Below are positions 3,873 to 18,434 of a stretch of DNA of 20,587 bases, piece by piece; position 1 is the first letter of the stretch, and each line of letters starts with the position of its first letter. The notes beneath the pieces were generated by a model. It was not told the origin of the DNA. It ran no database searches and saw only the letters and a list, made by a program, of their open reading frames with translations. Both the position numbers and the translations under genes were made by a program. Origin of the DNA: a virus (lineage: Duplodnaviria > Heunggongvirae > Uroviricota > Caudoviricetes); the IMG/VR virus record IMGVR_UViG_3300029862_000030, positions 1 to 20,587 of that record; one strand, given 5' to 3'.

Positions 3873-4561
3873 TCACTGAGACACTATTAAAAGCGCGTTT
3901 TCCAGTCCGGCAAATGGATCTGAGACGCCTTCTGTCTGCTCCTGCTCCCACTGAAGAAGCGCATCATTCAGTGGCACTTTGACCCCCTGCGCACCGTAAA
4001 CAGCTGAAACAATCTGGGCAGCCCGGATATCAGCCCGCTCGTCACCCAGCGGGCTGAACCTGTCAAATTCTGCCCACATCATGATTTCTGATGCGGACAT
4101 TTCCCGGCGTAACTCTGACAATGTGCGCCCCATCCTGAGCGCCAGCATCATCAGAAAACGCATCCCCGGAAGCGCTACTTTTTTTTAACCTCGCCGGCAT
4201 CACTGATCAGTTCCAGAGACTGCCGAAGAAGCCGCGCATGCACCGGGCCATACACGGCAATCACCTGTTCACGATCATCCTCTGAAAATACGGGTTGCAG
4301 TCCGGTATCACACAGAACATCAATGAACAGTTCAACATCTGCCTCCAGATTTCGGCGGGCGCGCTCCGCAACGGATAACGGTGTCTCATCATCTTTTGCT
4401 TTAACGATCTCCTGCCAGCGCAACCAGGCTTCTGCAGAAGGTTCCCGTAACACAACCGTTGCTCCCTCCCATTCAGGCACATCAACGGTTTTATGGCGAA
4501 ACCCCGACATCGTTGCCAGTGCCAGATTACGGATATTTTTAGTCATCACATCCATCCTCAT
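3873..4561 (-). CDS. Tail assembly chaperone GT fusion, made by a programmed -1 ribosomal frameshift from G into the T frame
   Basis: The slippery heptamer A_AAA_AAG lies at 4184..4178 (minus strand), just before the G stop TAG (4177..4175). Reading in the -1 frame gives KKVALPG followed by MRFLMMLALRMGRT..., which is exactly the 96-aa ORF 3873..4163 in the track. The frame arithmetic is consistent. Confidence 0.7.
4175..4561 (-). CDS. Tail assembly chaperone G (lambda gpG analog)
   Basis: 128-aa ORF immediately upstream of the tape measure. It ends ...GEVKKK with an A AAA AAG slippery heptamer at its 3' end. Confidence 0.75.
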   Translation of the reverse strand: MRMDVMTKNIRNLALATMSGFRHKTVDVPEWEGATVVLREPSAEAWLRWQEIVKAKDDETPLSVAERARRNLEADVELFIDVLCDTGLQPVFSEDDREQVIAVYGPVHARLLRQSLELISDAGEVKKK

Positions 4562-12519: not shown

Positions 12520-13035
12520 ATGGATAAAACCAGAAAATATGACAGAGCCTTACAACTTGAAATCCTCAATGCCCTTATAGATTGCGCGCCTAACTCTTTA
12601 AACAAGGCACAGGAGCGAGACCTCATTGAGAAGTTTGACAGTTACGATCACTTTGTGGCGTGCATGTTATACCTTGAAATGCATGGTCTCGTTTCCACCC
12701 CCTTCATACGCAGTGACACCATGGCTGGCGTTGAGTTTATCTTCTGTGCCCCTAACTGCTACATTACAGAAAAAGGAATTGATTTTCTTCTCGATGATGG
12801 CGGCTTAAGTGCGATCCTTAAAGTTCAGACCTTTCGGTTACACAGTGACACGATTGTTGCCCTTGAGGATATAATCCGTGTCGCAAATATATCTGAAGAT
12901 CAGAAGAAGGGATTGATTTCAAAACTCCGAGAGCTTCCGGGAGACGCCATAAAACATTTGACCCTACAGTTACTGACTCAGGGGGTTCTGAATCTGCCGA
13001 ACGCACTTCGACTAATTCAAACAACCCTCCAGTAG
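12520..13035 (+). CDS. Hypothetical protein, unknown function; AT-rich gene on the opposite strand to the late operon
   Basis: 171-aa plus-strand ORF with a GGAG Shine-Dalgarno sequence 9 nt upstream of the ATG. Base composition is visibly more AT-rich than the flanking late genes. It is inserted between the HNH endonuclease and the small terminase gene. Confidence 0.6.
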   Translation: MDKTRKYDRALQLEILNALIDCAPNSLNKAQERDLIEKFDSYDHFVACMLYLEMHGLVSTPFIRSDTMAGVEFIFCAPNCYITEKGIDFLLDDGGLSAILKVQTFRLHSDTIVALEDIIRVANISEDQKKGLISKLRELPGDAIKHLTLQLLTQGVLNLPNALRLIQTTLQ

Positions 13036-13563: not shown

Positions 13564-14028
13564 CTACTTAATGCACTGAGTGCGGATATACTCCTGTGCC
13601 CCTTCCAGTTGCATCTGCATCGTCATCAGCCGCTCTCTGAGGGTGAAATAATCCCGTTCAGCGGTGTCTGCCAGTCGGGGGCTGGTTGCATTATCCACGC
13701 CGGAGGCGGTGGTGGCTTCACGCACTGACTGACAGACTGCTTTGATGTGCAACCGACGACGACCAGCGGCAACGTCAGCGCGAAGAGTTTCATTTTCAGC
13801 CTTCGCATCAGCTAACTCCTTCAGGTATTTTGCATCGAGTGCAGCAACATCACGCTGGCGTATCTGCATGTCAGTAATGATTGCGGTCGCCTGGTTGAGT
13901 TTTTCCATCACATTATCGCGTTGCGCTTTGTAGGTAATGGCATTATCACGGTAATGATTGACCGCCCACGACAGGCAGACGATGATGCAGATAACCAGAG
14001 CATAAATAATCGCGGCGACTCTGCTCAC
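13564..14028 (-). CDS. Rz: Spanin inner-membrane subunit (Rz / i-spanin)
   Basis: Near-identical over long stretches to lambda Rz as recalled ([27 protein letters not shown]..., [25 protein letters not shown]). The track ORF begins at TTG 14043; the likely true start is GTG 14028 (VSRVAAII, aligned with lambda MSRVTAII), overlapping the endolysin stop. Confidence 0.9.
13626..13808 (-). CDS. Rz1: Spanin outer-membrane lipoprotein subunit (Rz1 / o-spanin), nested inside Rz in the +1 frame
   Basis: 60-aa ORF with the lipobox LVVVGC and the proline-rich segment [29 protein letters not shown], almost identical to lambda Rz1 as recalled. Confidence 0.85.
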
Positions 14029-14558
14029 TGATCTATCCCCCAACAGGCTAATGCGCTTTCCTGGTCACGACGAATAACCTGTCCATAGCAGTTATTTGAA
14101 CGTATGCGGCAATCGCGCCCACCATCTTTTATCCACCAGCGAATCGCCTCGCATGCGCCCTTACGATCACCGGCATTCAGCCGCTTATAAAACGTCGACG
14201 GAAAACACTTACCGGGGCCAATGTTATAGGGACAGAATGACGCGATACCCGCTTTTTGTGGTTCGGTCATTGGTACTTTAATATTGCGCTCTACCCATGC
14301 CAGCGCCTTATCACGTTCAATAGCGTTAACCTGGTCGCATTTTTCCTTCGACAGTTTCATACCGGGAAAAACGGGTTTTCCATCCACCATCGTGGCACCC
14401 CGACAGATGGTCCAGATGCCGGAACCATCGCGGTATGCCGTTGTGTGGTTACCTTCTTTTTCATCCAGAAACTGGTCGAGAATGTCAGGCGCAGGCGCAC
14501 CTGCGGCAATCAGCGCCAGAACGGCAGCCGACAGGCCGTATCTGATTTTTGCGTTCAT
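14025..14558 (-). CDS. SAR endolysin (lysozyme, phage 21 R / Qin RrrQ type)
   Basis: 177-aa ORF. The N-terminus ([27 protein letters not shown]) is a Gly/Ala-rich, weakly hydrophobic signal-anchor-release segment. The body is lysozyme-like and matches my recollection of the E. coli Qin prophage lysozyme. Confidence 0.9.
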
Positions 14559-14608
14559 GGATATTTATCAGGATTTATCGGTTCCGAATACCTGGATATG
14601 TTAAGTCT

Positions 14609-14953
14609 TCAGCCCAGCGGTGGAGTCTTCAGAGAACCAGTAATTCTTCCCGGTAGCTTTCCTTTGTAGGTTATCCACACATTCTGCGCCTCTAAAATTA
14701 CGGGGCGCTTTTCCGGCGACTGCTCACCCCCTTCACATAACCCGGCAGCAACATCCAGGAAGACCTGTCTGATGCTCCTTCTGGCTGCTGCCTCATAAAA
14801 CTCCAGCGCGGCACCTTCAACACGGTCCAGCGAGATGTCCAGGTCAAAAATTTCACCGTCAAAGCGTTTTTTGTCCCGTAACGCTAAAGTTACCGTAACT
14901 TTATTCTCAAAATTGCGGATCCCTTTCACAATCAGTTCATAGTTTTGAGTCAT
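14609..14953 (-). CDS. YdfR-like (DUF1327-type) conserved protein of unknown function between holin and endolysin
   Basis: 114-aa ORF. Its position between holin and lysozyme is the same as ydfR in the E. coli Qin prophage. The family assignment is from memory. Confidence 0.65.
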   Translation of the reverse strand: MTQNYELIVKGIRNFENKVTVTLALRDKKRFDGEIFDLDISLDRVEGAALEFYEAAARRSIRQVFLDVAAGLCEGGEQSPEKRPVILEAQNVWITYKGKLPGRITGSLKTPPLG

Positions 14954-14957
14954 TGAA

Positions 14958-15173
14958 TTACTCTCCCCGTGCAGCCTTACGCTTGTCTTCTCTGATTTTG
15001 AAGTACAGATTTGTCAGATAAGTCAGGAAGCCCAGAACCAGACTCCCCAGTACACCAATCGCAGCCCACTGTGACGGACTGACCTGATCAAGCCACTGTA
15101 AAAACCAGTAGCCAGCACTGCCTGCGGAGGTGCCGTAGGCAATGCCCGTTGAAATTTTGTCCATGGATTTCAT
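14958..15173 (-). CDS. Class II pinholin (phage 21 S-type) with a dual-start motif
   Basis: The 71-aa product [71 protein letters not shown] matches the phage 21 S holin as recalled. The track ORF 14958..15272 was trimmed to the ATG at 15173, which has a GGAGG Shine-Dalgarno sequence. M1 and M4 give the antiholin/holin dual start. Confidence 0.9.
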
Positions 15174-15338: not shown

Positions 15339-15344
15339 GCATGT

Positions 15345-15374
15345 AAAAAGGCCCCAACACATGTGCGTGGGGCC
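15345..15374 (-). terminator. Candidate minus-strand intrinsic terminator upstream of the holin (possible tR'-like element)
   Basis: Minus-strand reading gives a GGCCCCA/TGGGGCC stem around an 11-nt loop containing the palindrome CACATGTG, followed by TTTTTAC. Confidence 0.45.
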
Positions 15375-15574
15375 TGAGAGTATACATGGTTTCAGTCAAC
15401 TGCATGGTGCCGGGTGCCTCCCGGTGAATTCAGTACCAGCACCTGAATCCGCGATTATCCCATATACCTACTCGCTGATTGCCCATCCGCACAGGGGGAT
15501 TCACCATGCCAGTTTCTTTTAACAAACTCCCCGCAAAACAGACAACTGTCAACCGTCTGAATTGTGAGACATTT

Positions 15575-15614: not shown

Positions 15615-15691
15615 TGGCGCGTTGTACTGGATTCGAACCAGTGACCGATTGCTTAGAAGGCAATTGCTCTGTCCGGTTGAGCTAACAACGC
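15615..15691 (-). tRNA. tRNA-Arg (anticodon TCT, reads AGA), argO-like
   Basis: Hand-folded from the reverse complement: acceptor stem GCGTTGT/ACAACGC, D arm GCTC..GAGC, anticodon stem ATTGC/GCAAT with loop CTTCTAA, T arm CTGGTTCGAATCCAG, discriminator G and an encoded CCA. Similar to E. coli argU. Confidence 0.8.
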
Positions 15692-15704
15692 AGGGTACAG
15701 ATAA

Positions 15705-15781
15705 TGGACCGCCATCGAGGACTCGAACCCCGCGCAACCAGCTTCGAAGGCTGGTGCTCTATCCTGATGAGCTAATGGCGG
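15705..15781 (-). tRNA. tRNA-Arg (anticodon TCG as read by hand, reads CGA), argN-like
   Basis: Hand-folded: acceptor stem CCGCCAT/ATGGCGG (C1-G72), D stem GCTC/GAGC, anticodon stem CCAGC/GCTGG with loop CTTCGAA, T arm CGGGGTTCGAGTCCTCG and an encoded CCA. The anticodon call depends on my loop assignment. Confidence 0.65.
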
Positions 15782-15788
15782 TATGTGA

Positions 15789-15864
15789 TGGTGGCCCTTG
15801 CTGGATTTGAACCAGCGACCTGGCGATTATGAGTCGCTCGCTCTCACCACTGAGCTAAAGGGCC
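15789..15864 (-). tRNA. tRNA-Ile2 (anticodon CAT, lysidine type, reads AUA), ileZ/ileX-like
   Basis: Hand-folded 76-nt sequence GGCCCTTTAGCTCAGTGGTGAGAGCGAGCGACTCATAATCGCCAGGTCGCTGGTTCAAATCCAGCAAGGGCCACCA, which closely resembles E. coli tRNA-Ile2 (ileX) as recalled. Anticodon loop CTCATAA. Confidence 0.8.
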
Positions 15865-15904: not shown

Positions 15905-16243
15905 TCATCCGTTCTGGCTGACTAAATCCTGTACTTCCCGAACCGTCTGCTCAAAACGTTCAGTCTCCAGCTCAACGCCAATTGCACGACGCCCGAGCGC
16001 CAGTGCCGCTTTCACTGTCGAACCCGACCCCATGAAAAAATCTGCAATCAGGTCACCCGGACGACTGCTAGCGCTGATTATCTGCTGCAGCATTTCTGCC
16101 GGTTTTTCGCACGGATGTTTCCCGGGATAGAACTGCACCGGTTTATGCGTCCAGACATCGGTATACGGCACCTGCGCCGTCACGCCAAAATACCGCCGCA
16201 GTCGGCATTCACAACCACCAGCGCATTTAACGTTCAGGCACAA
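15905..16243 (-). pseudogene. 5'-truncated DNA N6-adenine/N4-cytosine methyltransferase remnant (C-terminal part only)
   Basis: The 112-aa ORF contains HPCEKP (the HPTQKP-type motif) and DFFMGSGST (the FxGxG AdoMet-binding motif) near its C-terminus. These are the C-terminal half of beta-class amino-methyltransferases. No DPPY motif or N-terminal half is present; the reading frame runs into the AT-rich region upstream of the porin. Confidence 0.6.
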
Positions 16244-16693
16244 AAAAACCCGCTCATCGGCGGGTTTAAGCTGTGTGACGAAGTAACTACTCTTAACAGC
16301 ATAACCAATTTTTTACGTACGTAAACTACTAAATGATATTTGTGAGAATGCCACCGAGTGTTCAAAACACCACCACAAATACATAAGAAAATTTCAACAA
16401 ATAACCAATTAATAATTTCAGATGTTATTTTTAGTTTGTTTAAATTAAGCTAAAGAATTATAGACTGCTTATAAATAAGTTCCATTAATATAAATTAGCT
16501 AATAGATTTATTTTTGTTCAAACAAGAGCCATAAATAGGATTAGATAGAAAAGGTTCAGATAAAAATAGAGATCTACTTCACAAATTAAATGAGAAACTA
16601 AAACTTACATCTTGAAATAATCACATTGATTAGATGAATATTTATCGCGCAGTGACATCATTTTTTAATAATAGTTCAAAAAAAGGGTGTACA

Positions 16694-17776
16694 ATGAAAA
16701 AATTAACAGTGGCAATTTCTGCTGTAGCTGCATCAGTACTGATGGCGATGTCTGCTCAGGCAGCTGAAATTTATAATAAAGACAGTAACAAGCTGGATCT
16801 ATACGGGAAAGTTAATGCCAAGCACTACTTCTCCTCTAATGATGCAGATGATGGTGATACTACTTATGCCCGTCTTGGCTTCAAAGGTGAAACCCAAATC
16901 AACGATCAACTGACTGGTTTCGGTCAGTGGGAATATGAATTCAAAGGCAACCGCGCTGAATCTCAAGGTTCTTCCAAAGACAAAACCCGTCTTGCATTTG
17001 CAGGCCTGAAATTTGGTGATTACGGCTCAATCGATTACGGCCGTAACTACGGTGTAGCATACGACATCGGTGCGTGGACTGACGTTCTGCCAGAATTCGG
17101 TGGTGATACCTGGACCCAAACAGATGTGTTCATGACTGGTCGCACTACTGGTGTTGCAACTTATCGTAACAACGACTTCTTTGGTCTGGTCGATGGCCTG
17201 AACTTTGCTGCTCAGTATCAGGGTAAAAATGACCGCACTGACGTAACTGAAGCCAATGGTGATGGTTTCGGTTTCTCCACTACTTATGAGTATGAAGGAT
17301 TCGGCGTGGGTGCAACCTATGCTAAATCAGATCGCACTGACGGTCAGGTCGCCTATGGTAAGAGCAAATTCAATGCCTCCGGCAAAAATGCGGAAGTATG
17401 GGCTGCAGGCCTGAAATATGATGCGAACAATATCTATCTGGCTACCACATATTCTGAAACTCAGAATATGACCGTTTTTGGTAATAACCATATTGCAAAC
17501 AAAGCACAAAACTTTGAAGCAGTAGCACAATATCAGTTTGACTTCGGTCTGCGCCCATCTGTTGCTTACCTTCAGTCAAAAGGTAAAGACCTTGGTGTTC
17601 ATGGTGACCGAGACTTAGTCAAGTATGTCGATGTCGGTGCTACTTACTACTTTAATAAAAACATGTCCACTTTTGTTGATTACAAAATCAACTTAATTGA
17701 CGATAGTAAGTTTACCAAAACAGCTGATATTGATACCGACGACATCGTCGCTGTAGGTCTGGTTTACCAGTTCTAA
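16694..17776 (+). CDS. nmpC: Outer membrane general porin, NmpC/OmpC/OmpD family
   Basis: The track ORF 16634..17776 contains the signal peptide [23 protein letters not shown] followed by [16 protein letters not shown] and a C-terminal ...VGLVYQF beta-barrel signature, matching NmpC as recalled. The start was trimmed to the MKKL Met; my nucleotide count in that line disagrees with the track frame by 1 nt, so the start is good to about 1 nt. It is on the opposite strand to the phage late genes and preceded by about 370 nt of very AT-rich DNA. Confidence 0.9.
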
Positions 17777-17965: not shown

Positions 17966-18349
17966 TTAATTAGAGTTATTAACAACGATATCCATCTCTA
18001 ACTGGATATCTAATGCCATTAACATCCCTTCAATTATGCCCTCAGCCTTCTGTAACCTTTTCCCGATATAACCATCAGAGCAGCAATGCTTACCTGCCAG
18101 TGACATGAATGTCATACCGACTACATAATAATCTACTAATAAATCGTGCAAATCGCTGTTGTTCTTTTTCAGACGGGCCATGCACCCGCAAATGATCATA
18201 GCGTCATCGTCACAACATTGCGGGCGAGATTTTACTTTTGAAGTAATTAATCCCTTAAAACCGGCGGCAATGGACGACCAGGTCACATCTTCATGATTAT
18301 TAGCCGCCCACGCTCCCCAACGCTCAAGAACCATCTGAATATCACGCAT
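17966..18349 (-). CDS. Late-gene antiterminator Q (DLP12 QuuD-like)
   Basis: The 127-aa product from the ATG at 18349 ([22 protein letters not shown]...) matches my recollection of E. coli QuuD. The track ORF starts 5 codons earlier at an alternative TTG. It lies downstream of rusA and ylcG, as in DLP12. Confidence 0.8.
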
Positions 18350-18434
18350 CAACTTACTCCACAAAAATCAGACCAGAACGCCAATTACAAGCAAAAATCA
18401 ACAAAACAGTATTAGTTGATTGTTATCTCTGACT

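Follow-up and report, generated by a model that had tools for sequence, protein, structure and literature searches.

What does a small gene lodged between the holin and endolysin genes of a lambdoid phage do, and does its place in the lysis cassette reveal its function? The locus that raises this question lies on a 20,587-nt stretch of viral DNA (IMG/VR record IMGVR_UViG_3300029862_000030), here called the window, which by gene content is an HK97-like lambdoid prophage. An earlier sequence-only reading had placed a 114-aa gene of the DUF1327/YdfR family between S and R (14609..14953 on the minus strand, from an ATG to a TGA; among family members a short allele), and Pfam, PHROG and neighbour matches all bear this out. 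The profile search it proposed matches the protein to Pfam PF07041 (DUF1327) over residues 1-112, with E=5.8e-43 and 145.5 bits against a cut-off of 25. The PHROG match is phrog_406, a family of unknown function, and a 100% identical DNA copy in E. coli ZH063 carries the RefSeq label 'YdfR family protein'. NCBIfam returned no match for the protein and Rfam no RNA family within the ORF. We are very confident of the identity of the gene and of its anatomy as described below: it is an already known, annotated YdfR/DUF1327 gene, and the window adds nothing beyond the family. The earlier reading was also right that the literature defines no function: searches on DUF1327, ydfR/b1555 and lysis cassettes found no paper defining one and no study of a lysis role, the single DUF1327 match being incidental and the ydfR matches mostly unrelated. 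The sole functional data on YdfR come from a 2026 RNA Biology report on the K-12 protein (PMC13232886), to which we return below.

The surrounding genes leave little doubt about the type of cassette. Upstream lies a 71-aa S21-type pinholin gene (14958..15173, minus strand; PF04971, E=1.3e-35, and holin PHROGs), and downstream the 177-aa lysozyme R, a SAR-type endolysin (14025..14558, minus strand; PF00959, E=1.9e-24; phrog_7, endolysin); the MKSM dual start of the former and the N-terminal SAR-like segment of the latter are read from the sequence only. The Rz i-spanin (13564..14043, minus strand; PF03245, E=3.6e-49) follows, with the Rz1 o-spanin embedded in it (13626..13808, minus strand; PF06085, E=6.6e-20). 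With a dual-start S21-family holin, a SAR-like lysozyme and spanin genes one inside the other, all read in the same direction, this is a phage 21-type cassette. Along the minus strand, NinB, YbcO, RusA and Q precede a methylase fragment, three tRNAs, an STnc100 match and the lysis genes; an HNH endonuclease gene, identified by Pfam, comes after Rz/Rz1, and the structural genes (terminase, portal, capsid, tape measure) lie beyond the lysis genes.

Several features of this region are worth recording in their own right. A complete general porin gene (16634-17776, plus strand; PF00267, E=1e-150) sits between Q and the lysis genes, beside a fragment of an N6/N4 DNA methylase gene that covers profile positions 135-220 only (15905-16243, minus strand), and late transcription from the Q gene at 17966-18364 must cross both. 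The three tRNA genes (Arg-TCT, Arg-TCG and a Met/CAT-anticodon tRNA; 15615-15864, minus strand) stand just upstream of the lysis cassette. Stx phages carry a tRNA cluster upstream of their stx genes, which the window cluster resembles. Between the tRNA cluster and the holin gene, an Rfam match to the STnc100 sRNA (15339-15538, minus strand; 133 bits, E=1.5e-29) falls inside the presumed late transcript. Further along, a 171-aa ORF with no Pfam match (12520-13035, plus strand), between the HNH endonuclease and small terminase genes, could be another accessory gene.

How is the DUF1327 gene tied to its neighbours? Its ATG lies 4 nt past the holin stop codon, and its Shine-Dalgarno sequence GGGGAGAG (14961..14968, minus strand) falls within the last holin codons, 7 nt from the ATG, so that the junction reads GGGGAGAG-TAA-TTCA-ATG. 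We analysed 258 fetched loci, of which 243 are Escherichia loci with upstream sequence; the gap between holin stop and DUF1327 ATG is 3-4 nt in every one of these 243, and the fixed position inside the lysis operon described earlier thus holds within Escherichia. The other side of the gene is loose, the distance from the DUF1327 stop to the start of R ranging from -83 to +536 nt across the analysed loci. A consensus scan of the minus strand from the holin start to Rz found no promoter-like or terminator-like site. Co-transcription with the lysis genes, which had been stated as fact, is therefore consistent with the scan, and the gene is apparently part of the late lysis transcript, but this much we infer.

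The comparison with 933W, which lacks DUF1327, is instructive. There it is R whose start codon follows the S stop at a distance of 4 nt, served by this GGGGAGAG site too; DUF1327 thus takes up a coupled start that belongs to R in such a cassette. In the window, R is instead preceded by a 50-nt spacer with a leader without Shine-Dalgarno sequence (14559..14608, minus strand) ending in GATAAATCCTGATAAATATCC-ATG; this AU-rich leader is conserved in the window, H-19B and two further loci, L112 and L016. The R genes behind DUF1327 (in the window, L001, L016 and L112) share the SD-less GATAAATCCTGATAAATATCC-ATG leader, which in the window lies at 14559-14585 (minus strand), and begin MNAKIRYG; the R of 933W, coupled to S, begins MSRKLRYG. 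It is conceivable that the gene acts mainly in cis, the insert uncoupling translation of R from that of S and setting the endolysin-to-holin ratio, while the protein itself matters little. The exact placement at the S-coupled start, the conserved SD-less leader and the repeated truncation or deletion of the 3' part of the gene would all suit such an effect. But RNA folding of the DUF1327-R spacer gave no significant structure (z = +0.88 against shuffled sequence), homologues occur away from any endolysin gene, and the amino-acid sequence is under purifying selection with several invariant core residues, as set out next. We regard a purely cis-acting role as very unlikely.

The protein itself falls into two parts of opposite character. 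Its N-terminal core domain (codons 1-76; 14726..14953, minus strand) is acidic, with a pI of 5.0, and the structure prediction suggested by the earlier reading gives it a confident fold of three antiparallel strands and one long helix: AF2 pLDDT is about 80-94 for residues 1-75, with strands at 5-14, 18-27 and 34-43 and the helix at 50-74. In an alignment of 23 diverse members, E6, G47, Y53-E54 and A57, together with Y5 and L7, are invariant or nearly so. The C-terminal module of about 35 aa (codons 77-114, EKRPVILEAQNVWITYKGKLPGRITGSLKTPP; 14612..14725, minus strand) is basic, with a pI of 9.8, and is predicted to be disordered, its pLDDT lying below 50 for residues 77-114. The maximum 19-aa hydropathy is 0.69, so the window protein has no transmembrane segment, and it carries no membrane or export signal. 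Fold searches gave no significant match, with nothing at E<=0.001 in Foldseek against BFVD.

Across the family, protein length ranges from 103 to 330 aa and a core of about 75 aa is common to all alleles. The alleles of 296-330 aa are longer by a coiled-coil segment and a tail of about 130 aa. Some 670 nt of their DNA are missing from the window gene, a short allele; aligned with L112, an allele of 329 aa, it loses homology at window position 14618 and regains it at 14581. The C-terminal region of the long alleles matched neither Pfam nor PDB sequences, and the model of one long allele (P0142, 287 aa) has a mean pLDDT of 49.8 and is unusable beyond the core. The short allele's stop codon lies between copies of a 9-nt direct repeat, CTGAAGACT (in context CTGAAGACTCCACCGCTGGGCTGAAGACTT; 14618-14640, minus strand). 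Homology to the 329-aa allele ends at about this point, and the repeat could have served as the microhomology from which the short form arose.

The alleles also appear to be mosaics. Cores fall into deeply diverged classes (dS >1), yet alleles with N-domains of only about 60% identity keep a C-module whose DNA is about 91% identical, which points to a recombination junction near AAGLCEG. An unusual case is P0145, a 112-aa protein on a single 1752-nt contig, in which the EKRP…KTPP C-module follows a coiled-coil N-terminus without any DUF1327 core; this N-terminus resembles the middle segment of the long alleles, and the domain make-up suggests that the modules recombine independently. A core match in the repetitive 3128-aa protein P0161 (E=1e-8; six repeats at 32% identity) was set aside as probably spurious. 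The amino-acid sequence is under purifying selection: 72 distinct N-domain sequences give a dN/dS of about 0.30, and the C-module gives 0.30, which marks a real coding gene rather than a chance ORF.

Where is the gene found? Among complete E. coli genomes, about 80% (4305 of 5426) contain similar DNA, in up to nine copies each, and DUF1327 is present in 101 phage records, all of them Escherichia lambdoid or Stx phages, with H-19B, BP-4795, mEp460, YYZ-2008 and Stx1a and Stx2c phages among the carriers. The family is otherwise very small, with 324 clusters at 90% identity; a set of 1.84 billion proteins contains 64 representatives when grouped at 50% identity, and a set of 185,579 species genomes contains eight loci, all Escherichia/Shigella except for two MAG contigs that look like contamination. 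One could see in this very narrow range, in the many truncated alleles (103 to 330 aa) and in the lack of a phenotype on over-expression (PMC13232886) the marks of a selfish passenger in decay that at present serves neither phage nor host. However, such a passenger would hardly be expected to keep its core intact in about 250 loci at a dN/dS of about 0.3, to ride on H-19B, BP-4795, mEp460 and the Stx1a/Stx2c phages, or to be spread so widely and in such numbers through E. coli genomes; we give this explanation very little credence. YdfR/DUF1327 is best described as an accessory gene, optional among the lambdoid prophages of Escherichia.

The word optional matters for the question of lysis. The survey of holin-X-endolysin architecture that had been proposed gave a divided answer: the slot is the same in carriers, the gene lying between S and R in four of four phages inspected, but an S21-type holin is present in 438 phage records against 101 for DUF1327, so about three quarters, including 933W, do without the gene. 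As R follows S directly in 933W, the S21/R system works without DUF1327. Consistent co-occurrence with a holin type is not seen either, given these counts and the relatives that lie away from holins. One YdfR allele adjoins S21 alleles that are 76-100% identical to each other, which argues against allele-specific pairing. Co-variation of S21 and YdfR alleles was itself rejected as evidence in either direction, the genes being adjacent and the C-terminal half of S21 nearly invariant. Known antiholins and lysis regulators are recognized by membrane or periplasmic location or by homology, and the window protein has no match to a lysis family in Pfam, PHROG or NCBIfam. The role in lysis or its timing that had been deduced from position is thus not supported, with optional carriage, non-lysis sites, no membrane segment and no allele pairing to set against it. 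We are fairly confident that the DUF1327 protein does not belong to the core of the lysis machinery; it may nonetheless modulate lysis timing, a role for which the analysis gave no support.

Such an effect could arise if the acidic core, produced together with the pinholin through translational coupling, shifted the time of triggering by binding another lysis factor or S21 itself, at the positively charged C-terminal tail that lies in the cytoplasm. The junction invites the idea, with the gene 3-4 nt after S21 at all 243 Escherichia loci and its Shine-Dalgarno sequence inside the holin gene, and so does the chemistry: the core has a pI of 5.0 and a conserved acidic helix start (E46/E51/E54), and the C-terminal half of S21 hardly varies across all alleles. 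The Keio ydfR mutant, moreover, is among the matches of an envelope-leakiness screen (PMC3879167, supplement). We suspect, however, that YdfR loss is not behind this phenotype and that transcription reads out of the kanamycin cassette into the SAR endolysin gene rrrQ, which lies directly downstream. A timing modulator is also difficult to reconcile with the S21-type-holin phages that lack the gene, with the absence of any membrane segment or similarity to a known antiholin or releasin, and with core homologues that stand among tail genes or after Rz beside the unrelated holins PF16931/PF05449. We consider it an unlikely alternative, though one to keep in mind.

These homologues are the non-Escherichia relatives, 12 clusters from Yersinia species and Cronobacter that consist of bare 72-76-aa cores. 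Their genes lie at the tail M/L junction, at the tail I/J junction or after Rz, the last in a cassette with holins of PF16931/PF05449. The common denominator of all DUF1327 contexts is predicted late lytic expression, not lysis itself. A convergent small ORF was seen 15-30 nt downstream of every non-Escherichia DUF1327 gene (L261-L269, L094-L098), belonging to phrog_25324 (98-101 aa), phrog_10490 (93-110 aa) or others; in L261, for example, DUF1327 at 4001-4219 (plus strand) is paired with a partner at 4249-4548 (minus strand). This one two-gene cassette occupies three insertion sites in lambdoid late operons: tail M/L, tail I/J and after Rz. The DUF1327 gene behaves as a moron in that it is present or absent between syntenic phages (933W versus H-19B and the window) and in its differing insertion sites; a promoter or terminator of its own and expression in the lysogen, the other marks of a moron, are not seen, the scan finding no such sites and the gene starting 4 nt from the holin stop.

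Could the Escherichia gene then be the remnant of a two-gene accessory cassette with a defence, counter-defence or toxin/antidote-like role, whose partner was lost or replaced by the C-terminal extensions? The partner beside DUF1327 in every non-Escherichia locus, and the recurrence of the same pair at three sites in the manner of a mobile moron cassette, are what this would predict. But no homologue of a partner ORF was found in the window or in any Escherichia locus, and the Yersinia/Cronobacter partners show no similarity to the Escherichia C-terminal extensions. No defence model in PADLOC matched the protein of the window or any of three longer DUF1327 alleles. The gene in the window is coupled to the holin gene and lacks its own promoter, and over-expression of ydfR is not toxic (PMC13232886). 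We judge a cassette remnant to be decidedly unlikely.

The most informative lead comes from the K-12 protein. Residues 1-72 of K-12 YdfR, reported to bind the catalytic half of RNase E, were recovered three times in a two-hybrid screen; full-length YdfR gave a signal with Rne(1-597), and full-length T25-YdfR did not score with full-length Rne, Rne 1-498 or Rne 1-415 (PMC13232886). Rne(1-598)-FLAG co-eluted with Strep-YdfR, and DNase-resistant nucleic acid co-purified with YdfR, although the authors could not exclude a contaminant as the RNA binder (PMC13232886). Over-expression of ydfR changed few transcripts and left growth unaffected, and in the uninduced lysogen the gene is essentially silent, with almost no RNA-seq reads (PMC13232886). 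The window protein is 82% identical to K-12 YdfR over residues 1-72. Transferred from this fragment, binding to the N-terminal half of RNase E or to RNA is the most likely activity of the window core, a prediction that we hold with limited confidence.

We therefore propose the following reading of the locus, which we favour only tentatively, at somewhat short of even confidence: an optional late cytoplasmic accessory protein whose core binds RNase E and/or RNA. The gene occupies the S-R junction of S21-type cassettes and uses the holin-coupled ribosome-binding site that R has where DUF1327 is missing; with such a site, the protein is expected to be made only late in lytic growth, together with the holin. 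Its product is small, soluble and presumably cytoplasmic; the core is acidic, and the tail is basic and probably disordered. The protein is not built into the machinery of holin, endolysin and spanins, and S21-type lysis does without it. Instead, RNA or the N-terminal catalytic half of the host's RNase E may be what the core docks onto, and such docking may adjust how RNA is processed or decays in the final phase of infection. The S-R slot would then reflect where the insert landed and how it is translated, rather than membership in the lysis machinery. Besides the constructs that did not score, the possible contaminant and the slight effect of over-expression, some points weigh against the RNase E reading: the binding data come from a different allele and from over-expression, an acidic core is unusual for an RNA binder, and the invariant S21 adjacency in Escherichia remains compatible with a holin-related role. 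A broader version, in which the DUF1327 core is an RNase E- or RNA-docking phage module, deployed late by temperate lambdoid phages, mobile as a cassette among late operons and a new regulator of RNA decay, strikes us as possible but doubtful.

Why should this gene receive attention? YdfR-family genes are among the commonest E. coli prophage genes of unknown function and are present in many Stx1 and Stx2c phages. Their product would be expressed with the lysis genes, which in Stx phages is also the time of toxin release. If the protein tunes lysis time or the stability of late RNA, phage burst and toxin release would both be affected; if it binds RNase E, it would offer a compact handle on a central host enzyme. 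What this work adds is the anatomy of the short allele, with its conserved 75-aa core and swappable tails, the fixed holin junction, the distribution of the gene, the selection acting on it and its dispensability.

Finally, we would like to set the window gene beside systems already described. K-12 YdfR (b1555, P76160), encoded in the Qin prophage in the order essQ-ydfR-rrrQ-rzpQ, belongs to the same Pfam family, and its gene is placed alike, with an S21-type holin gene ending 4 nt upstream and a SAR lysozyme gene following. It diverges completely after about residue 70, however, where K-12 has EKLSEKVESYLQHQYSFKIENPANKHERPHHKYL and the window the EKRP…KTPP module, and ydfR shares 4 nt with rrrQ, while in the window 50 nt separate the gene from R. 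The Stx1 phage H-19B (AF034975) contains an unannotated ORF between S and R that agrees with the window in its length of 114 aa, its 50-nt spacer, its C-module and its R leader, but its N-domain belongs to the other deep allele class (MKKKYELVVKGINNYPDK…; 62% overall identity to the window, dS >1); BP-4795, YYZ-2008 and the Stx1a/Stx2c phages carry equivalent genes. The long alleles of Escherichia prophages (296-330 aa; phrog_1085) share the core, the C-module and the position after S21 with the window, which lacks their extra coiled coil and their tail of about 130 aa, itself modelled at low confidence.

Two groups of phage proteins with defined functions also invite comparison. P2 LysA, P1 LydB, T4 RI and the Mu gp25 releasin are membrane or periplasmic lysis regulators. 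Like DUF1327, they are encoded by an extra gene in or beside a holin-endolysin cassette; DUF1327 differs from them in having no hydrophobic segment and no homology to any of them. T7 gp0.7, phiKZ Dip and T4 Srd, for their part, are phage-encoded proteins that are expressed in lytic growth and act on host RNase E. Any likeness of the window protein to these three would be functional only, and it is through the K-12 YdfR data (PMC13232886) that the window protein may join them as a phage product directed at this enzyme.
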